NCBI GenBank assembly: GCA_045593745.1
Contig: JAZNXF010000012.1
Span: forward strand, 21,575-85,574
Length of the DNA: 64,000 bases
Source: Elusimicrobiaceae bacterium
Lineage (GTDB): Bacteria > Elusimicrobiota > Elusimicrobia > Elusimicrobiales > Elusimicrobiaceae
Reading direction: 5' to 3'
Below, piece by piece: positions 3,630-62,887 of the stretch; the first letter of the stretch is position 1; every line of letters starts with the position of its first letter. The position numbers were made by a program, and so were the translations under genes. Below the pieces are notes generated by a model. The model saw only the letters and a program-made list of their open reading frames with translations, was not told the DNA's origin and searched no databases.

Positions 3630-3842
3630 TATAAGTCCCCCTTGGCTAAATTTTAGCATTTTATCAACGAATAAATAAACAACAACTTACCCTCCAAATT
3701 GGGCAAAAATGTGCAGGATTGCGCAAAAGTTTTAGTACAAAGTAGGAAGAAATTATGTAAAATAAAAAAGTAGCAAAAAAATTTATTCTGTTTTTGGAAT
3801 CCTATGAAGAATAGGAGAGGGTTTCGGGTTAAACCGAAAAAC

Positions 3843-4005
3843 GCTCTAGCCGCCAAAGACAACCAGTATAGACACAAAGCGAAAGGACTTCGAACCCTTT
3901 TGCTTTGTGTCGAATGTTTATCGTTTTGCTTTTGAACAAATGATAAATTACGGCTGTTGGTTGTTAGGTTCTGGCTAGAGCACTTGCACCTGACAGCCGT
4001 TTTTT
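3843..4005 (+). ncRNA. Candidate cis-regulatory structured leader RNA (attenuator/riboswitch-like), copy A
   Basis: GCTCTAGCC/GGCTAGAGC outer stem, GACACAAAGC/GCTTTGTGTC hairpin, GAATG (3912), second hairpin, TACGGCTGTT (3949), ACAGCCGT followed by a T-run (3993-4005). The same fold occurs before all four pilin genes. Confidence 0.8.
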
Positions 4006-4052
4006 ATGGGGTTTTGACAGATAAATTGAATTTAACGGTAAAGGAGTAATGT

Positions 4053-4724
4053 ATGCAACATAGAAATACCCGGCGGGGTTTTACGCAACAAGAAAAAGAG
4101 GCCGTTATCTGTTCCCCTTGTGGGGAAAGTGTCGCGCAAGCGACAAAAGAGGGGCAAAATAAGGAAAAATCCTTATGGCCCCTCCTACCCCGCCTAACGG
4201 CGGTACTCCCTCCACAAGGGCGGGAGATGTCCTGGGGTTTTACGCTTATTGAATTACTGGTAGTAGTGTTAATTATTGGTATTTTGGCGGCGGTGGCCCT
4301 GCCGCAGTACCAAAAGGCCGTGGAAAAAAGTAGGATTGCGGAGGTAAAAATAGCATTAGATACTTTGCAAAAAGCAGTAGATCTTTATTTGCTTGAAAAT
4401 GGTTATCCTTCATCGGGTATTGTCTATTTTGTAGGAGAATCCTCTGCAGAAGATGCTACAAATGTCTCGTTGGATTTGGATATTACCAAAAGTATGGTTT
4501 GTTATGCTCCAGAAGATCCTTTTTGTGTAACAGATCACTTTTCTTATGATGCTTACTGCGAACCTTGGGGGTGTATTGTGGGTGCGGGGGATATTGATGT
4601 AAAGAATGCTGAAGAGTATTTGCGTAGTGATTACGACCGATATCGTTTGAGGTCAACAAAAAGCGCAGATACGAATCAATGGGTTAGAGAATGTATAGAT
4701 TGCCCTTCTTATGTAGAATGGTAA
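4053..4724 (+). CDS. Type IV pilin (PilE-like) with extended leader
   Basis: G|[29 protein letters not shown]-methylation motif; AAGGAG RBS. Confidence 0.92.
4111..4227. repeat. Palindromic REP/MITE-like element inserted in frame in the pilin leader
   Basis: Multi-hairpin TTCCCC..GGGGAA / GAGGGGC..GCCCCTC / CTCCCT..AGGG architecture; flanked by the 12-bp direct repeat GGGGTTTTACGC (4075-4086, 4234-4245); related copy at 34475-34577. Confidence 0.75.
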
Positions 4725-19595: not shown

Positions 19596-19606
19596 TATAA
19601 TAAAAA

Positions 19607-19929
19607 TGGTAGCCAGATAACCGCTCCCGGCTAACTTCAGCGCAGGGGGAGGAACTTCCGGACTCCACAGGGCAGTATGCCACCTGAAAGGGTGGGCTGG
19701 CGTTTTTTCTTTTTTTCGCCAGACGGAAAGTGCCGCAGAAAATAAACCGCCCGCAAGGGTAAGGGTGAAAAGGTGCGGTAAGAGCGCACCGCGCGCAAGG
19801 TAACAAGCGTGGCAGGGTAAACCCCATACGGAGCAAGGCCAAGCCGGTCCACAGGTGCCCGCCTTCGTGACCAAGTAGGCCGCTTAGAGTAATGGTTATC
19901 CACGACAGAATCCGGGGTACCGGCTACCA
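19607..19929 (+). ncRNA. rnpB: RNase P RNA (type A)
   Basis: TGGTAGCC/GGCTACCA P1, GAGGAACTTCCGGACTCC, GGAAAGTGCCGCAGAAAA, GGTAAACCCC, GAGCAAG, ACAGAATCCGG. Confidence 0.93.
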
Positions 19930-19945
19930 CATTTTCTTCTTTTTC

Positions 19946-20260: not shown

Positions 20261-20410
20261 TGGCCCCATGTAAAATTAAATTATCCCCATTTTTTCTGAC
20301 TATTTATGGCGGGCTTTTTTTTCTTGTTAATTAGATAATTTTTTATTATACTATAGGTACAATTTGTTCTGTTTTTGGAACCGTTTAAGAAACGGAGTGC
20401 TTGAAAAAGT

Positions 20411-20564
20411 TCTTGTCTAGTCCAAAAATAGCCGACTTAGGTACAGCTGAAAACTATAGATTTGGCTGTGCCGAATGTTTTCCGTATCTGCCAGGCAGAT
20501 ATGGAAAACTACGGCTGTTATGGCTGGGACTCTAGACAAGACCTGTGCTGTATAGGCCGTTTTT
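20411..20564 (+). ncRNA. Candidate structured pilin-leader RNA, copy B
   Basis: TCTTGTCTAG/CTAGACAAGA outer stem, two hairpins separated by GAATG (20473), TACGGCTGTT (20510), GCCGTTTTT (20556). Confidence 0.8.
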
Positions 20565-20639
20565 GTTGGTTTCATAAGCAGAAGAATTGAACATATAGGT
20601 TGGGTGAAAACCCAACGTAAAAATAAGGAGAGTAAACTT

Positions 20640-21335
20640 ATGAACTACAAAAACACCCGGCGGGGAAAAACGCTTCATTTCAATACAGAAAAAAATATGG
20701 GATGTTACCGCTTCCCCCTAGAGGGGGAAGGTGGCCAAAGGCCGGATGAGGGGGAAAGTAATACAAAAGTTTTAGCCATTGGTCAACTAAGGATCCCCCT
20801 CACCTGCCCTACCGGGCATCCGCTCCCTCAAGGGAGAGAAAATGCACGCTCCGGGTTTACGCTTATTGAACTTTTGGTTGTTGTGCTTATTATCGGCATT
20901 TTGGCGGTGGTAGCGTTGCCGCAATACCAAAAAGCTGTCAAAAAGGCACGGGGCACAGAAGTATTAACGGCTCTAGATGCGTATGATAAAGCCATATCAT
21001 CCTATTATTTGACCCATGGTTTTTATGGCGGGGCCAGAGCCGATACATTAGATGTTCAGATGCCAATTTTGAAGCATTTTTTATATGCGTCTGTAGGCGG
21101 AGACAGAACGCCGGACTTTCAAGTAGGTAGCAATTTTCTCCAGGTAGGAACCGGAACATCTACACAGATATTGTTGGTAGAAAAAGGTACTACGTTAGGA
21201 GTATGGGCCGAGTGGGACAAAGGTTCACGGCCTCAGCGTTGGTGTTCGGACAATGGGAAAGATATTTCCAAAGAATGTGCTGCCTATTTTGGCCCCTGTA
21301 CATGGAACAGTATGTACAGGCGTTGCTACTTCTAA
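20640..21335 (+). CDS. Type IV pilin (PilE-like) with extended leader
   Basis: G|[24 protein letters not shown]; start at ATG 20640 after AAGGAG. Confidence 0.92.
   Translation: MNYKNTRRGKTLHFNTEKNMGCYRFPLEGEGGQRPDEGESNTKVLAIGQLRIPLTCPTGHPLPQGRENARSGFTLIELLVVVLIIGILAVVALPQYQKAVKKARGTEVLTALDAYDKAISSYYLTHGFYGGARADTLDVQMPILKHFLYASVGGDRTPDFQVGSNFLQVGTGTSTQILLVEKGTTLGVWAEWDKGSRPQRWCSDNGKDISKECAAYFGPCTWNSMYRRCYF
20711..20838. repeat. Palindromic element in frame in the pilin leader
   Basis: CTTCCCCCT-AG-AGGGGGAAG, TGAGGGGGA/TCCCCCTCA, CTCCCTCAAGGGAG; same architecture as 4111-4227. Confidence 0.7.
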
Positions 21336-34577: not shown

Positions 34578-34767
34578 AAAACAATACCAATGGGAAGCAG
34601 CCCATCTTTCAGACAGTATTACCAACAATTTTAAATATTAGTCCCAACATGTAGTTTATCTCTGGAAAAATATACTAAATTTGTTATAATTACAGTGTAA
34701 GTATAATACTTACGACAACTTAATCTGTTTTTGGCACTGTATAAAACCGGACGTATTGGCTACAATA

Positions 34768-34914
34768 CAGGCAATCAACCAAAACAGCCCATTAAAGCAT
34801 ACAGTTAAGGACCTCTAGAACCCTTGATTGTATGCTGAATGCTTGCCGCTTGCGGCGGGTTACGGCTGTTTATGTCGGGGTGTGATTGCCTGCCTGTCAT
34901 AAGGAGCCGTTTTT
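34768..34914 (+). ncRNA. Candidate structured pilin-leader RNA, copy D
   Basis: CAGGCAATCA/TGATTGCCTG outer stem, 15-bp hairpin, GAATG (34837), TACGGCTGTT (34861), AGCCGTTTTT (34905). Confidence 0.8.
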
Positions 34915-34940
34915 ATCAGGCCAAAACAAAGGAGACAATC

Positions 34941-55127: not shown

Positions 55128-56018
55128 ATGGAATATATCTCGGCAGTACAAGCGGCTAAAAAGTGGAAAATTTCGGAGCGGAGCGTACGTAATTATTGTG
55201 CGCATGGCCGTATTGCGGGGGCTTTTTTAACCGGCAAGACATGGAACATTCCGTCAGATGCCTCTAAACCTATGCGTAAACCCAAACAAAGCAAGCACGC
55301 TAATACCTTACTTAATATATTAAAAGCCGAGCAATCTTCCAAACAACATGGCGGTATTTACCATAAGATACAAATTGACCTTACTTATAATTCCAACCAT
55401 ATAGAAGGCAGCCAACTTACCCATGACCAAACCCGCTATATTTTTGAAACAAACACGATTGGAGTGGAAGATAATACCGTAAAGGTGGATGATATTGTAG
55501 AAACCGCTAACCATTTTAAATGTATTGATATGATTATTGAGAATGCTAACTATAAACCCAGTGAACATTTTCTAAAAGAATTACACGGTGTGCTTAAAAA
55601 CGGAACGTCGGATAGCCGTAAATCGTGGTTTGCGGTGGGGGATTATAAGCGCAAACCCAATGAGGTGGGGGGACACGCCACTGCCAGTCCGGAACAGGTA
55701 GCGGCTAAAATGAAAACCTTGCTAGCCAAGTACAACCGCAAAAACAAACATACCTTTGAGGAATTATTAGATTTCCATTACCAGTTTGGAACCATTCACC
55801 CATTTCAAGACGGGAACGGACGTATCGGGCGGCTGATACTGTTTAAGGAGTGTTTGCGTAATAATATCGTTCCATTTATCATTACGGACAAGATAAAGAT
55901 GTTCTATTACAAAGGACTTAATGAGTGGCCGAAAAATCACGAACGCTTAACTGATACTTGTTTGTCCGCGCAAGACCAGATGAAAGCAGTGCTAGATTAT
56001 TTTAAGATTACCTATTAA
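55128..56018 (+). CDS. Fic-family protein with N-terminal HTH
   Basis: HPFQDGNGRIGR Fic motif; AAKKWKISERSVRNYC HTH. Confidence 0.92.
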   Translation: MEYISAVQAAKKWKISERSVRNYCAHGRIAGAFLTGKTWNIPSDASKPMRKPKQSKHANTLLNILKAEQSSKQHGGIYHKIQIDLTYNSNHIEGSQLTHDQTRYIFETNTIGVEDNTVKVDDIVETANHFKCIDMIIENANYKPSEHFLKELHGVLKNGTSDSRKSWFAVGDYKRKPNEVGGHATASPEQVAAKMKTLLAKYNRKNKHTFEELLDFHYQFGTIHPFQDGNGRIGRLILFKECLRNNIVPFIITDKIKMFYYKGLNEWPKNHERLTDTCLSAQDQMKAVLDYFKITY

Positions 56019-56470: not shown

Positions 56471-56543
56471 TGGACCGGACAGGACTTGAACCTGTGACCT
56501 TCCGCGTGTAAGGCGGACGCTCTACCAACTAAGCTACCGATCC
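56471..56543 (-). tRNA. tRNA-Val (anticodon TAC), CCA not encoded
   Basis: GGATCGG TAGCTTAGTTGGTAGAGC G TCCGC CTTACAC GCGGA AGGTC ACAGG TTCAAGT CCTGT CCGGTCC A. Confidence 0.96.
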
Positions 56544-57813: not shown

Positions 57814-58034
57814 AATTCATAAAAAATAATTGCATGTTGTCAACCCTAAAAAATGATTACACAAAAATTATTTTTACCGTCTGAAAAATGCAAAAAAATA
57901 CTGATAAAACAAACAAAAAAATATACTTGATTTTTTGTAAAAAAATAAGTTTAGACGTAAAAAGTATTGCATTTTAAAAATTTTTGTGCTATTATTTTTA
58001 TGAGGTTAAAACTAATTGTCTTAGGAGATTAAAA

Positions 58035-58307
58035 ATGGCTGTTAAAAAAACCGTGAAAAAAGTAGCCGCCAAAAAACCGGCTGCTAAAAAAGTAGCAGTG
58101 AAAAAAGCCGCCGTAAAAAAACCGGCAAAAAAAGTAGTAGCCAAAAAAGCATGTGCTAAAAAAGCGTGTGCCAAAAAGGCCTGCGCTAAAAAAGTAGCCG
58201 TAAAGAAAGTTGCCGTAAAAAAAGCCGCTGTAAAAAAAGTTGCTAAAAAAGCGGTAAAAAAAGTTGCCGCCAAAAAACCGGCTAAAAAAGTAGCAAAAAA
58301 GAAATAA
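58035..58307 (+). CDS. Histone H1-like Lys/Ala-rich nucleoid protein
   Basis: xAKKx pentapeptide repeats; AGGAG RBS before ATG 58035. Confidence 0.82.
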   Translation: MAVKKTVKKVAAKKPAAKKVAVKKAAVKKPAKKVVAKKACAKKACAKKACAKKVAVKKVAVKKAAVKKVAKKAVKKVAAKKPAKKVAKKK

Positions 58308-58321
58308 TTTAGTACCGTTGT

Positions 58322-58363
58322 AAAAAATCCCCGCCCAAGCATTTGCAAGGGCGGGGATTTTTT
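58322..58363. terminator. Bidirectional terminator
   Basis: AAAAAATCCCCGCCC...GGGCGGGGATTTTTT between convergent genes. Confidence 0.8.
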
Positions 58364-58377
58364 GTGAAGTGTTTATA

Positions 58378-58887
58378 TCAGTCCCAATTGCGTGGTAATA
58401 ATTGCTTAATTAGCTCGCACGTTAATTGCCCATGAGGAGCATATTCCTCGTCGTATTGACAGTGACATGTGGGTTGTCCATTGATTATGTCACATTCAAA
58501 ATAAGTATCCACCGGGTCTTCTGCTAATGCCACTTTCCAATACATTTCATTATTTTCAGATACGGCCCAAGCTACATAACGAAAATAATCATCGTCACAA
58601 TGAAATTGGCCTTCTGACATGCGGCATGATGTATGGGGAACAAGGTTTGGTAGGGGGTTATCTGTGGGGTTTGTTGAAGCCCATTTGTCTGTGTCTTGAG
58701 CGAGGATATCTAGCACCATTGCTTTTTCTACACTATTTATAAATGCCATGGGCCTAGCCGTTAACCGTGCTTTCCATACGGCCTTTTGATACTGTGGTAA
58801 CGCCACCGCCGCCAAGATACCGATAATTAACACCACTACCAACAACTCTATAAGCGTAAAACCCCGCCGGGTACTATTTATTGTCAT
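58378..58887 (-). CDS. Type IV pilin (PilE-like)
   Basis: MTINSTRRG|[24 protein letters not shown]; GGAGG RBS. Confidence 0.92.
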
Positions 58888-58922
58888 ATTTCCTCCTTCA
58901 TTCTGTTGGGGATATAGACAAT

Positions 58923-59070
58923 AAAAACGGCTATAATGTCGCCTGGGAGTATCAGCAACCAAACGCCAAACAGCCGTAGTTCCGCGCAAAACGGAACATT
59001 AAACAGAAAATATCTCCGGAGCAACCCTTCGGTATTTTCTGTCTTAACGACTGTTTTGGGGCTGATACTC
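58923..59070 (-). ncRNA. Candidate structured pilin-leader RNA, copy C
   Basis: On the minus strand: GAGTATCAGC/GCTGATACTC outer stem, hairpin, TAATG, hairpin, CTACGGCTGTTT, TAGCCGTTTTT. Confidence 0.8.
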
Positions 59071-59350
59071 GTTTTAATTGTCTAAAACTTGCCTGCTAAC
59101 GCAGGAACCCAAAACAGAATAAATTTTTTATTACCTTTTTATTCTACATAATTTCTGTTTCTTTTAATAGGTATTTGGGAAAAAACGTAAGTACAAAACA
59201 AAACTTGACAAAACTAACAAAATTTGCTAACTTAAATACACAAGGCAATCAAACAAGCCGCAACCCACCTTTCAAAAGCACATTTTTGCGGCATCCAAAA
59301 CAAAAAAATCCCGCCGGATAACCGGCAGGATACAAAATGAATGTAGTATC

Positions 59351-59584: not shown

Positions 59585-61078
59585 ATGAAAAAAACAGAAC
59601 ACTATTTAAAACGCTACCAAGCGTTAAAACAAACAAGGTCTGCGTGGATGAATACCTGGAAAGAATTATCCACTTATATTGCACCCACGCGGGGGGTGTT
59701 TGAAGTGCAGGCCCCGCATGCGGCCAAACGTATAGACCACAAAACCCTGCTGGATAGTTCCGCCTCTCTGGCAGTGGGTATATTAGGGGCTGGCCTGATG
59801 AGCGGACTGACCAGCCCCTCGCGCCGGTGGTTTCATCTTACCTTGCGCCATGCGTATTTAAAGCAACTGCCCGGTGTGTCGGCGTGGCTACTGGAGGTTC
59901 AAAAAAGTATAGAACGCGCTTTGGCCAAAAGTAACTTGTACGCTGTGTTGCAAAGCGTGTACGAAGAAGTCAGCGTATTTGGCACAGCGGCTTTCTTGGT
60001 AGAAGAAGACCCGCAAGGGGGTATTTTCTGCCGTCCGTTTACCGCCGGGGAATATGTGCTGGATATAGACGAAAAAGGCCGCGTGAATACCTTTGGGCGG
60101 GAATTTAGCATGACGGCAGGGCAATTGGCCTCTTTCTTTGGAATTGATAATTTGCCACCGGCTATCCGTTTGGAGTTAGAGGGGCAGCAAGCATCTGCCC
60201 AGCACCAGGTAATACACCTTATTTTCCCTAATCCGCAAGCGGACAGTAAGTGGGAAGATTATATGCACTTTGCCTATAAATCGGTCTATATGCTTACAGA
60301 CGGAACCTTACTGCGGGAAGGGGGATACCATGAATTTCCGGTAGTGGCAGTCCGTTGGGAAACAAAAAATACTTCGGAAATTTACGGCCGCGGCCCGGGG
60401 TGGAAAGTGTTGGGCGACGTAAAAATGCTTCAAAAAATGCAAAAAACCAAACTGGTGGCCTTAGACAAAAACACCAACCCGCCCGTCATGGTGTCTGCCA
60501 GTGTGCAAGGGGAAGTGAATTTACTTCCGGGGGGAATTACGCGGTGCAATAGTTTAACGGATGCCGCTGTAAAACCTGCCTACCAGGTACAGGCAGATTT
60601 ATCCTCGTTAGATGATACGATGGAGCAAGTGCGCCACACCATTAGTTCCCACTTTTTTGCAGATGTGTTTTTAATGTTGTCTTCGCAGGATTCTCCTACC
60701 CGCACGGCGGCTGAAGTAGCCGAACGCCGCCAGGAAAAAATGCTTATGTTGGGGCCTGTGTTTCAGCGGTTAAAAACGGAACTGTTAGACCCGCTGATTG
60801 AGCGTACTTATTTTATTTTGCTACGCCAAGGCATATTGCCGCCCGCTCCGGAATATTTGCACGGCCTGGAGTTGCAGGTAACCTATATTTCCACGATCGC
60901 CCAGGCCCAGCGTGCCAGTGCGGTGGAACCGTTACTGCAGGGGCTTGAACTGGCAGAACGTATTGCGCAAAGTGACCCGGCTTCTATCAGTCAGTTAGAT
61001 TACGCACATGCACTACGGGAAGGATTGGAAAGTTTAGGCGTAGATGCGATGCTTTATCCCCAGGAGAACAATCAATGA
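59585..61078 (+). CDS. Phage portal (head-tail connector), T7/BPP-1-like
   Basis: GLMSGLTSPSRRWF, YGRGPG, RTAAEVAERRQEKMLMLGPV..RL..ELLDPLIER. Confidence 0.9.
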   Translation: MKKTEHYLKRYQALKQTRSAWMNTWKELSTYIAPTRGVFEVQAPHAAKRIDHKTLLDSSASLAVGILGAGLMSGLTSPSRRWFHLTLRHAYLKQLPGVSAWLLEVQKSIERALAKSNLYAVLQSVYEEVSVFGTAAFLVEEDPQGGIFCRPFTAGEYVLDIDEKGRVNTFGREFSMTAGQLASFFGIDNLPPAIRLELEGQQASAQHQVIHLIFPNPQADSKWEDYMHFAYKSVYMLTDGTLLREGGYHEFPVVAVRWETKNTSEIYGRGPGWKVLGDVKMLQKMQKTKLVALDKNTNPPVMVSASVQGEVNLLPGGITRCNSLTDAAVKPAYQVQADLSSLDDTMEQVRHTISSHFFADVFLMLSSQDSPTRTAAEVAERRQEKMLMLGPVFQRLKTELLDPLIERTYFILLRQGILPPAPEYLHGLELQVTYISTIAQAQRASAVEPLLQGLELAERIAQSDPASISQLDYAHALREGLESLGVDAMLYPQENNQ

Positions 61079-61374
61079 ACCCAAGTAAACTAAAAAAACG
61101 TTTTACCTATGATATGCAAACCGTACTAAAAACCCCAGCAGGCCGCCGCGTCTTATGGCGCATTTTGCAAGCCGCACAAATCCGCCAACATGGTTTTGTG
61201 CCGGGGGACAGTACCTCCACTTCCTTTCATTGTGGACAGCGCAGTATTGGCCTATTTTTGCTTGATGAAATTGAACAAGCACACCCCGGTGCTTATCAAC
61301 AGATGCGCGGGGAATATGTGGCGGAAGTAACTTCCGCCCAACAACAATTAAACCAGGAGAATAACCATGACTAA
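61075..61374 (+). CDS. Phage protein (BPP-1 Bbp19-like)
   Basis: VLKTPAGRRVLWRIL...F..G.RSIGL.LL pattern after the portal. Confidence 0.75.
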   Translation: MNPSKLKKRFTYDMQTVLKTPAGRRVLWRILQAAQIRQHGFVPGDSTSTSFHCGQRSIGLFLLDEIEQAHPGAYQQMRGEYVAEVTSAQQQLNQENNHD

Positions 61375-61897
61375 CCCAGAAACCGATTTACACGCACCGG
61401 CCGTGGCTACAGAAACTACGGTAGCCCGCACACAGCCGGCCGAACCTGCAGACCCGTATGCCGCAGTATCCCTGCCGGAAAATTCCTTACTTGGTGCAGA
61501 ACAGTTGGCGGCGTTCAAACAAACCGCTACTGAAGCCAATCTGCCGGCCGCTTCTCTGCAAAAGTGGCTCACGTTAGAAGAAACCCGCCTGCAAACACTT
61601 GCCCAACACCAGCGCGAAGAAAAACAACGTACGCTTGAGCAATGGGCTAGCCAGACGCAAGCAGAATGGGGGCCTAACTGGCAAGAGGAAGTTTCCCGCG
61701 CGGTCCGTGCCGCCGACGTATTTGGCGGCCCGGAACTGCGGCAACTGTTAGAAGAAACGGGGCTAGGAAACCACCCGGCGATAGTCCGTACCTTCGCCGG
61801 AATTGGCAAACGGATGAGTGAAGATGTGACCCCCGGCGGAGCAACGCATGCTTCAGCGGATAAAACCTTCACCCAGGCGTTGTACGGAAAAAATTAA
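61367..61897 (+). CDS. Phage capsid scaffolding protein
   Basis: EWG..W, TGLGNHPAIVRTF..IGKRMSED, LYG C-terminus. Confidence 0.8.
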   Translation: MTNPETDLHAPAVATETTVARTQPAEPADPYAAVSLPENSLLGAEQLAAFKQTATEANLPAASLQKWLTLEETRLQTLAQHQREEKQRTLEQWASQTQAEWGPNWQEEVSRAVRAADVFGGPELRQLLEETGLGNHPAIVRTFAGIGKRMSEDVTPGGATHASADKTFTQALYGKN

Positions 61898-61909
61898 GGA
61901 GAAAAATCT

Positions 61910-62887
61910 ATGGCAATTATTGCAGATAAACAATATAACTTGGTGGATTACGCCAAGCAATTTGACCCCTCCGGCCAAGAATTGGCTATTGCAGAGGTAC
62001 TCAGCCAGTCCAATGATATGATTGGGGATGCGCTTGTTACGGAAAGTTCGTTGGATTCCGGGCATGAATATGCGGTTCGTACCGGTATCCCGGAAGGAAC
62101 CTGGCGCCGTGCTTATCAGGGTATTGAACCTGCCAAAGCAACTACTAAAGTAGTGGTGGAAAGTTATGGTACGCTGTCTGCCTATTCGGTAGTGGATAAA
62201 TTAGTGGCGGAAAAAGGCGGGCATGTAGATGCTGTGCGTACGGGCCAATCCCGCGCGATTATTGCGGGTATGTCGGCATCCATGGCCTCTAACCTCATCT
62301 ATGGTAATGCAGGGACTACGCCGGAACGGTTTACCGGGCTGGCTGCGCGGTATAATGAACTGTCCGGTGCGGAATCTTCCCGCAACGTCATTGATGCGGG
62401 GGGAAGCACCCATGGGCAAAATTCCTCTATTTACCTAGTGGTGTGGGATACCGATAAAGTGTTTACCTTCTTCCCCAAGGGGTCCAAAGCCGGTATCCAA
62501 CGCGTGGACTATGGATTAGTAAACCATGTGGATGCCGCCGGTAACGAGTTCCCCGCCTACAAAGAGTATTTTGAGTGGAAACTAGGTCTTGCCGTGCAAG
62601 ATTGGCGTTACGCGGGGCGTATTTGCAACATTGATGTAACCAATGTTCCCTCTACGCTTATTGACAGCATGTGTGACCTGGAAGAACGTATTCAAAGTTT
62701 GTCTTTGGGTAAACCGGTTTGGTATATGAACCGTACGGTGAAGGCCGCCTTGCGTAAACTCACGACCAACCGCTCTAACATTCAATACACGCCGGACCAA
62801 ATTACGTCTAGACCTTTAATGACGTTTAATGAAATCCCGGTGCATATTTGTGATGCTATCCGCGACGACGAAAACGTAGTCGCCTAA
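61910..62887 (+). CDS. Major capsid protein (BPP-1 Bbp17-like)
   Basis: RTGIPEGTWRRAYQG, FTGLAARY, GLAVQDWRYAGRICNID. Confidence 0.9.
   Translation: MAIIADKQYNLVDYAKQFDPSGQELAIAEVLSQSNDMIGDALVTESSLDSGHEYAVRTGIPEGTWRRAYQGIEPAKATTKVVVESYGTLSAYSVVDKLVAEKGGHVDAVRTGQSRAIIAGMSASMASNLIYGNAGTTPERFTGLAARYNELSGAESSRNVIDAGGSTHGQNSSIYLVVWDTDKVFTFFPKGSKAGIQRVDYGLVNHVDAAGNEFPAYKEYFEWKLGLAVQDWRYAGRICNIDVTNVPSTLIDSMCDLEERIQSLSLGKPVWYMNRTVKAALRKLTTNRSNIQYTPDQITSRPLMTFNEIPVHICDAIRDDENVVA

Follow-up and report, generated by a model that had tools for sequence, protein, structure and literature searches.

Genomic setting of the pilin C leader

The window analyzed here is a 64-kb (64,000-nucleotide) stretch of an Elusimicrobiaceae contig that contains four pilin-like genes with the sequence GFTLIELL, at 4236, 20853, and 34971 on the plus strand and at 58863 on the minus strand. 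The last of these, pilin C, codes for a 169-aa type IV pilin-like protein (58378–58898, minus strand), with a Shine-Dalgarno sequence (AAGGAGG) at 58892–58898, an ATG at 58887, and a Pfam N_methyl domain (PF07963, E = 5.1e-9, 35.8 bits against a cut-off of 21.2). Reading of the sequence and its homologues places a leader, copy C, 5' of this gene and on the same strand, from about 59128 to 58923. The region is a conserved, structured cis-acting leader. A −10-like hexamer, TAGAAT (59141–59146, minus strand), is its likely promoter, judging from the sequence; in homologues, TATAAT or TATACT occurs with an equal spacing 5' of the first element of the leader, strand alpha. The gene upstream of the leader has its own terminator (59331–59308).

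Phage structural genes occupy the other strand (59585–62887, plus), starting 460 nt upstream of the leader, and include a T7-like head-tail connector (PF12236, E = 2e-147) and a GP7 major capsid protein (E = 4e-111). Because these genes adjoin the leader, pilin C borders a prophage-like region. A tRNA gene is found near pilin C (56471–56543, minus strand), and adjoining it is a gene for a Fic/DOC-family protein with an N-terminal HTH (55128–56018, plus strand) that may belong to an integrated element. An ORF for a lysine/alanine-rich, histone-H1-like protein (MAVKKTVKKVAAKKPAAKK..., 57984–58307, plus strand) is convergent with pilin C, and a GC-rich hairpin at ~58340–58375 could terminate both.

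Structure of the copy C leader

The minimum free energy (MFE) of copy C calculated with RNAfold is −56.8 kcal/mol, compared to −35.6 ± 3.7 kcal/mol for dinucleotide shuffles (z = −5.79), and none of 200 shuffles was as stable. The MFE structure is a three-way junction of helices P1, P2, and P3. A preliminary description of this DNA had placed the element at 58923–59070. That core is present, but a strand and two hairpins precede it, which puts the beginning of the element near 59128, ~58 nt farther 5'. All of the parts are on the minus strand and are given here in order of synthesis. Strand alpha, CUGUUUUGGG (59108–59117), complements the 5' strand of P1b and is designated the anti-antiterminator. 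RNAfold places two hairpins after it, H1 (CCUGC GUUA GCAGG, 59092–59105) and H2 (GUUUUA GACAAU UAAAAC, 59071–59088). H2 is hypervariable among copies, and homologues have a hairpin of unrelated sequence at this site.

The P1a 5' strand, GAGUAUCAGC (DNA GAGTATCAGC, 59061–59070), is a perfect 10-bp complement of 58947–58956, which is the P1a 3' strand, GCUGAUACUC (DNA GCTGATACTC), located within the loop of the terminator hairpin. Strand beta is the P1b 5' strand, CCAAAACAGUCGU (DNA CCAAAACAGTCGT, 59047–59059), and its partner is either alpha or strand gamma. Gamma, ACGGCUGU...UUUGG (58959–58977), is both the P1b 3' strand and the 5' strand of the terminator. P1b in copy C pairs CCAAAACAGTCGT (59059–59047) with ACGGCTGT (58977–58970) and TTTGG (58963–58959), with G·U pairs and a 6-nt bulge. 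The P2 hairpin (59001–59044), identified by RNAfold and covariation, has a 12-bp stem, AGACAGAAAATA (59044–59033) with TATTTTCTGTTT (59012–59001), including one G·U pair, and the tip CCGAAGGGUUGCUCCGGAGA. Junction J2/3, identified from the sequence and the family consensus, is AAU (58998–59000) and precedes the G that opens P3. The P3 hairpin, GUUCCGU UUUGC GCGGAAC (58979–58997), also identified by RNAfold and covariation, pairs GTTCCGT (58997–58991) with GCGGAAC (58985–58979). The P1a, P1b, P2, and terminator helices of the preliminary description are all found on the minus strand, in the sequence and with RNAfold; P3 is also present, with 7 bp rather than the five that had been listed.

The 3' half of the terminator (58923–58946), assigned by folding, consists of strand delta (...AUAGCCG) and a run of five U's (58923–58927). 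The terminator pairs ACGGCTGT (58977–58970) with ATAGCCGT (58934–58927) and is followed by T5 (58927–58923); in RNA letters, this is ACGGCUGU/AUAGCCGU and then U5. The hairpin at 58977–58927 has an energy of −20.7 kcal/mol when folded alone. Its loop exceeds 8 nt, to which a simple terminator scanner is blind, and the hairpin was established by folding and covariation. The run ends 35 nt from the ATG, in agreement with the earlier estimate. Copy C thus has a stable hairpin and U-run that are 5' of a gene and co-oriented with it, the generic arrangement of an attenuator. The overlap between the terminator and the P1b 3' strand, also pointed out previously, is the sharing of gamma and is the core of the mechanism proposed below. 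Strand alpha, H1, H2, the true length of the terminator, the non-pilin genes of the family, and the palindromic P2 loops are additions to the preliminary description.

A related strain identified in a metagenome run has five differences from leader C, at 58989, 58991, 59077, 59097, and 59131. The loops of P3, H2, and H1 account for three of these and the region 5' of alpha for a fourth; the fifth, a U-to-C change at 58991 in the P3 stem, converts the U·G pair that closes P3 to C-G.

Leader copies in the window

A co-oriented leader copy precedes the start codon of all four pilin-like genes in the window by 33–73 nt. A covariance model of the core was used to search the window and yielded exactly four matches, at 3839–4006, 20408–20566, and 34765–34916 on the plus strand and at 58921–59073 on the minus strand; the best match outside of the four leaders has an E value of ~0.1. 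A second model, constructed using only homologues from other genomes and zero window sequences, produced the same four matches, with a score of 75.4 bits (E = 4.8e-14) for copy C and E = 0.11 for the best match outside of the leaders. Because two models find exactly the four leaders, the pattern is beyond chance and tracks the strand of the gene. The preliminary proposal of a cis-acting leader that travels with its pilin gene holds for the whole window, where all four pilin-like genes have a co-oriented leader and there is no other copy. A search of the window for a separate, trans-acting copy of alpha or beta returned only the leaders and chance-level matches.

Pilin genes A and B (4053–4240 and 20640–20855, plus strand) have long in-frame N-terminal extensions in continuous ORFs. 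Each has an apparent original start (M..NTRRGFT and M..NTRRGKT, respectively), followed by ~55–65 extra codons before the real GFTLIELL. Other Elusimicrobiaceae loci contain parts of these inserts (40–130 nt), in either orientation, and judging by their letters these parts look like small mobile hairpin repeats in the cleaved prepilin leader. Similar N-terminal inserts are found in many homologues (e.g., ...SRHAEFISASS... and ...CHSRMSLSGI...). A class A RNase P RNA (19605–19935, plus strand, 211 bits) ends ~420 nt before the alpha strand of pilin leader B.

Distribution and gene content of the leader family

A first pattern scan with one genome per species identified at least 110 loci, and ~90% of the matches listed were from rumen or gut Elusimicrobiaceae or Elusimicrobium MAGs. 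A second scan with different anchors identified at least 113 further loci, and the matches listed for it include the cultured Elusimicrobium posterum Dip510 (locus L135). The window itself derives from an uncultured relative in the ruminant gut, and the sequencing runs that contain it are low-depth metagenomes, apart from one run of unrecorded type. Covariance models confirmed at least 104 and at least 85 copies in Elusimicrobiaceae loci from the two scans, respectively, and more than 190 copies were recovered overall. Model matches reached at least 18 on the contigs of one MAG (JBGUOO) and at least 14 on those of another (JAFVFN); each genome of the gut Elusimicrobia has tens of leader copies. 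Two copies scoring ~119 bits were found in assemblies labeled "Spirochaetes UMGS352" (L112 2973–3133, plus strand) and "Muribaculaceae" (L138 5627–5793, minus strand). These are probably mis-binned or mislabeled Elusimicrobia contigs and not true spread across phyla.

Among 108 family members examined, 95 are followed by a co-oriented ORF that has a Shine-Dalgarno sequence and starts within 260 nt. This, together with compensatory changes across ~90 homologues, bears out the cis-acting role that had been suggested for the leader. The downstream gene is always co-oriented, and its Shine-Dalgarno sequence and start codon are 20–75 nt beyond the structure. A prepilin N_methyl domain is encoded by 75 of the 95 downstream ORFs, and a pilin motif was found in 46 of 68 in a second, independent sample. 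Pilin-like genes are ~70%–80% of the regulated genes, and most of the remainder code for glycosyltransferases or have other roles at the surface or in modification. The non-pilin ORFs code for three GT8 and three GT2 glycosyltransferases, an EpsG polymerase, a polysaccharide pyruvyl transferase, an EcoRI-like adenine methyltransferase, an SNF2 helicase, a DUF805 protein, and small coiled-coil proteins. Leaders precede non-pilin genes at loci L017, L026, L029, L055, L091, L093, L095, L096, and L099. Such sets of glycosyltransferase, methyltransferase, and helicase genes are typically phase variable in other host-associated bacteria.

We searched Rfam 15 (4,227 models) with cmscan and surveyed the literature for the leader. 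At the gathering threshold, the whole window matched only RNase P and one tRNA. The region 58800–59300 had four chance-level matches at E ≤ 10 (10.7–12.5 bits), and in the seven loci that contain the highest-scoring family members, nothing with E ≤ 1 overlaps a leader. No description of the leader was found in the literature on Elusimicrobia, pilins, riboswitches or other RNA motifs, and transcriptomes. The family is therefore new, in that it is outside Rfam 15 and we found no description of it in the literature.

Covariation and alternative pairings

In the first set of homologues, the pattern used for the scan dictated the presence of AATG, TACGG, TACGGCTGTT, and GCCGTTTT. A less biased set was made up of matches found only by the covariance model and of those from the second scan with its other anchors. 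RNAalifold, applied to 89 aligned cores, chose P2, P3, and the terminator, and 27 of 34 pairs have compensatory changes. The antiterminator fold (P1a, P1b, P2, and P3) has 87.2% of cells paired compared to 70.9% in shuffles, and 710 cells with double changes compared to 219, a value reached by none of 500 shuffles. Covarying pairs include 7 of 7 in P1a, 14 of 14 in P2, and 10 of 11 in P3, with 91.5% and 94.6% of cells paired in P2 and P3, respectively. P1a duplexes are more stable between cognate strands (mean −15.5 kcal/mol) than between non-cognate strands (−5.7 kcal/mol, P = 2e-53), and P1a pairing is gene specific.

Pairing between beta and gamma (P1b) is found in 98.6% of cells, and every change is a one-sided change to G·U. 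P1b and the outer stem of the terminator are near-invariant, with zero double compensatory changes, which in the first sample is partly a product of the search pattern. In the terminator fold, 88% of stem cells are paired, and the inner, variable part covaries, with double changes in six pairs. The terminator stem has a real length of 12–19 bp, and its loop contains the P1a 3' strand. The U-run is 88%–95% conserved in the less biased set.

Alpha has the consensus CUGUUUUUGG, is located ~40–60 nt upstream of P1a, and is followed by H1 and then H2. Pairing between alpha and beta was found in 94.4% of cells over 80 homologues, with 10 double-change cells compared to 2.2 in shuffles, a value again reached by none of 500 shuffles. 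Copy C itself has a compensated variant (UGGG/CCCA). Beta varies by transitions alone, such that G·U pairs are kept with alpha and gamma alike, as expected for a strand with two alternative partners. The near-invariance of alpha, beta, gamma, and delta can be attributed to this double use, because beta (with alpha or gamma) and gamma (with beta or delta) each serve two partners. The H1 stem also covaries when judged by eye (CCGU/ACGG, UCCU/AGGA, CUGU/ACAG, and GCGU/ACGC), with GNRA-like loops.

The junction was previously thought to have TAATG as a fixed motif. This did not survive the less biased sample, where J2/3 follows g-A-R-Y-G with 99% conservation of the A, and where AGUG is the commonest form and outnumbers AAUG. 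J3/1 is Y-R, and the R of J2/3 pairs with the Y of J3/1 across a bulged Y, with A:U, G:C, and G:U all seen. Because this R:Y pair covaries, P3 is one pair longer and continues past the bulged pyrimidine. The sites of the extra pair in copy C are 58998–59000 and 58978–58979 (minus strand), where the partner pyrimidine precedes the A/G before CGGCUG. Only U36, A41, and A93 are near-invariant unpaired junction bases in the less biased set. So small a junction gives a metabolite pocket little positive support and leans slightly against one.

Proposed attenuation switch

The selected alternative pairing in these leaders shares a strand, gamma, with the terminator, and alpha:beta is a third alternative. 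We consider it likely that the leader attenuates transcription through three pairings that exclude one another, and infer control of termination from these pairings, their covariation, and their near-equal stability. Regulation at the level of transcription is indicated because the U-run is conserved and the Shine-Dalgarno sequence and start codon are outside of the structure. In the proposed mechanism, the strands would be synthesized in the order alpha (CUGUUUUUGG), beta (CCAAAAACAGCCG), gamma (CGGCUGUU..UUGG), and delta (..ACAGCCG and the U-run). The alpha:beta helix would form once both strands exist and would enclose H1 and H2. If alpha:beta persists (OFF), gamma and delta would form the terminator of 12–19 bp, and polymerase would halt ~35 nt before the start codon. 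If gamma ousts alpha from beta (ON), a long P1 would form from P1b and the gene-specific clamp P1a and would close the three-way junction with P2 and P3, leaving delta unpaired and allowing read-through into the pilin gene.

Folding of nascent transcripts that end after P3 produced alpha:beta in copies A, B, and C, and P1 forms in all four copies once gamma and the P1a 3' strand have been transcribed. The MFE structure of the full-length RNA contains alpha:beta and the terminator in copies A and B and P1 in copies C and D. Over 81 members, the energy difference between ON and OFF, E(ON) − E(OFF), is +2.7 ± 4.6 kcal/mol. OFF is the stabler state in 62% of these members, and alpha:beta is present in 98% of OFF folds. 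From these energies, the leader is predicted to be a poised two-state switch, with a bias in each gene that is probably set by the strength of P1a. In copy C, the U-run is limited to five residues, the inner part of the terminator stem is imperfect, and P1a is a perfect 10-bp helix; this copy may lean toward ON and be mostly in that state.

We slightly favor a trans-acting macromolecule over a small metabolite as the factor that tips the switch, either a protein or an RNA acting through RNA-RNA contact at the self-complementary P2 loop, because there are about three near-invariant unpaired junction bases, while alpha/H1 and the P2 tip are conserved or patterned. We rank a protein or RNA partner first as the trigger, a small ligand second, and the absence of any effector, i.e., a purely kinetic set-point, third.

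Self-complementary loops at the P2 tip

The P2 tip is a small hairpin with a median loop of 9 nt. Palindromes of at least 6 nt occur in the P2 loops of 71% of 103 copies, compared to 5% after loop shuffling, and those of at least 4 nt occur in 92% compared to 38%. An independent set of 73 copies had 6-nt palindromes in 64% of P2 loops compared to 5%. P3 loops had no palindrome enrichment. At least 11 different P2 hexamers were found (UAAUUA, UCAUGA, UUAUAA, UUCGAA, UUGCAA, UCUAGA, CUCGAG, GUGCAC, CUAUAG, UGUACA, and AUUAAU), indicating that self-complementarity is selected and not one sequence. The 4-mers AGCU, GAUC, and GGCC are also present. Window copies A, B, and D have the palindromes UUCGAA, CUAUAG, and UCUAGA, respectively. 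The tip of copy C, GGGUUGCUCC, is without a loop palindrome and belongs to a minor class, GGGUYGCUCC.

A 6-nt palindrome is unable to pair inside its own loop. Self-complementarity that is otherwise free in sequence suggests kissing-loop homodimerization of the leaders, copy C excepted. It is conceivable, though improbable, that the leaders are self-recognizing, each kissing only RNAs with the same hexamer (its own or those of a few paralogues), which would create level-dependent, RNA-only feedback or a bistable switch. Genomes contain many different hexamers. Sharing of palindromes within a genome was not below random (17 shared pairs compared to 21 expected), and we rejected an orthogonal within-genome code on this basis. 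CsrA-type GGA motifs in the P2 tip were also dropped as a candidate, with several loop classes having them and others without.

Comparison to known regulatory leaders

The leader belongs to none of the systems compared here. The pyr leaders of Bacillus subtilis, which are bound by PyrR, and T-box leaders have successive exclusive helices and then an intrinsic terminator just before the gene. They are the closest in logic, in that the 5'-most helix (an anti-antiterminator) decides the fate of the antiterminator, as it would here. In contrast, the antiterminator of this leader forms the base of a three-way junction that has two long arms, and the regulon consists of surface proteins rather than genes for biosynthesis or aminoacylation. 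PyrR site and T-box models did not overlap the leader at copy C or at the seven family loci. The sole weak PyrR match (L080 742–905, 32 bits against a threshold of 54) is in a locus where the leader is elsewhere (1642–1804).

The closest system in target is the type IV pilin gene pilA1 of Clostridioides difficile, which has a c-di-GMP-II riboswitch upstream that acts as a transcriptional ON switch. It shares a structured leader and terminator before a type IV pilin gene, and read-through is its induced state, as it would be in the ON state proposed here. Unlike c-di-GMP-II riboswitches, this leader has a plain three-way junction in which no pseudoknot was found, and it occurs in tens of copies per genome. 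Models for c-di-GMP-I and c-di-GMP-II were absent from the window at the gathering threshold, from copy C at E ≤ 10, and from the seven family loci at E ≤ 1. Three-way-junction ON riboswitches are the closest in shape. Purine-type riboswitches (adenine ON) have the same P1-P2-P3 junction and a P1 3' strand in common with the terminator. However, the unconstrained P3 loops of this leader give no indication of a loop-loop contact between P2 and P3, its junction strands are far shorter and show weaker conservation, and there is no Rfam match.

The dimerization initiation site (DIS) loop of HIV-1 is a hairpin loop with a central self-complementary 6-mer. The palindromic P2 loops of the family resemble it, with 9–11 nt, a central 6-mer, and two to three unpaired nucleotides 5' and one to two 3' of it, although the setting is a bacterial attenuator rather than a viral genome and copy C has no palindrome. 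Kissing hairpins are found in DIS, the guanidine-II riboswitch, and ColE1 RNA I/II, and dimerization of the leader is putative. The RfaH/ops-JUMPstart system, LoaP leaders, and UpxY of Bacteroides use NusG paralogues, which a site in the DNA or RNA recruits and which are processive on long operons. They are the closest in regulon (pili and LPS/capsule glycosyltransferases, as here), with control of termination in a 5' leader. Here, the switch would be self-contained, based on alternative pairing, and mostly before single genes. JUMPstart and LoaP-leader models had no match in the same Rfam searches.

Alternative explanations

An orphan ON riboswitch for a metabolite or second messenger is possible but doubtful. 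In such a switch, a ligand would bind the three-way junction, stabilize P1, and block the terminator, as in adenine and c-di-GMP-II switches. The layout is that of a standard transcriptional ON switch with a P1 3' strand common to the terminator, ON and OFF are balanced to within about 3 kcal/mol, and a many-gene regulon for surface structures would suit control by a second messenger. The small junction, with its approximately three near-invariant unpaired positions, argues against this, as does the lack of Rfam aptamer matches, even at E ≤ 10 for copy C, and the anti-antiterminator layer and hypervariable palindromic loop would be superfluous for a simple ligand switch. It is unlikely that the terminated leader of ~205 nt is chiefly a trans-acting sRNA or homodimer, working through the P2 kissing loop or the alpha/beta strands, with attenuation secondary. 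The excess of 6-nt loop palindromes in both samples (71% and 64%, compared to 5% when shuffled) fits this reading, and alpha, beta, gamma, and delta are common to all leaders, such that cross-pairing in trans would be possible. However, copy C and its class have no loop palindrome, P2 is present in both ON and OFF folds and dimerization therefore offers no obvious choice between states, shared palindromes are not avoided within a genome (17 compared to 21 expected), and a free-standing copy without a downstream gene was not established.

A selfish MITE- or REP-like repeat, or plain paralogous duplication that rides with pilin genes and has no regulatory role, is very unlikely. Many copies per genome and the small repeat modules nearby, within the N-terminal coding regions of pilins, would be expected of such a repeat, but every copy points the same way as the gene downstream of it, at a fixed and short distance. 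Hundreds of compensatory changes in four helices, gene-specific P1a pairs, and the presence of the leader before unrelated genes (GT2, GT8, EpsG, and methyltransferase) also count against it, and terminal inverted repeats or target duplications were not seen. Ribosome-mediated attenuation through a leader peptide that begins at the AUG or GUG within A-R-U-G at the junction is scarcely credible. AAUG and AGUG do include start codons, and the four-strand layout recalls the trp and leu leaders. This candidate was rejected because there is no Shine-Dalgarno sequence before the junction codon, variants that destroy the codon occur (AACG and AGCG), and P3 lengths vary out of frame, leaving no conserved peptide; in addition, the R of the junction covaries as a base pair with a pyrimidine across P3.

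Implications for Elusimicrobia

Elusimicrobia are a poorly studied gut phylum with dozens of pilin-like paralogues per genome, the role of which is obscure. One recognizable leader ties most of these pilin paralogues into a single regulon with LPS/capsule glycosyltransferases and a DNA methyltransferase. The leader is a new class of orphan cis-regulatory RNA that is rich in covariation, and a covariance model of the family would flag the promoters and 5' ends of the regulon in hundreds of MAGs. If the palindromic loops dimerize, they would be among very few natural bacterial regulatory RNA homodimers; natural functional RNA dimers are seldom observed, according to a review (PMC7357161). Dimerization of these loops would also open a possible RNA-level path to surface-antigen variation. 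If self-recognition is real, it would let a cell choose among dozens of genes for pilins and surface glycosylation, a selection of surface antigens for expression that resembles phase variation without a change in DNA.
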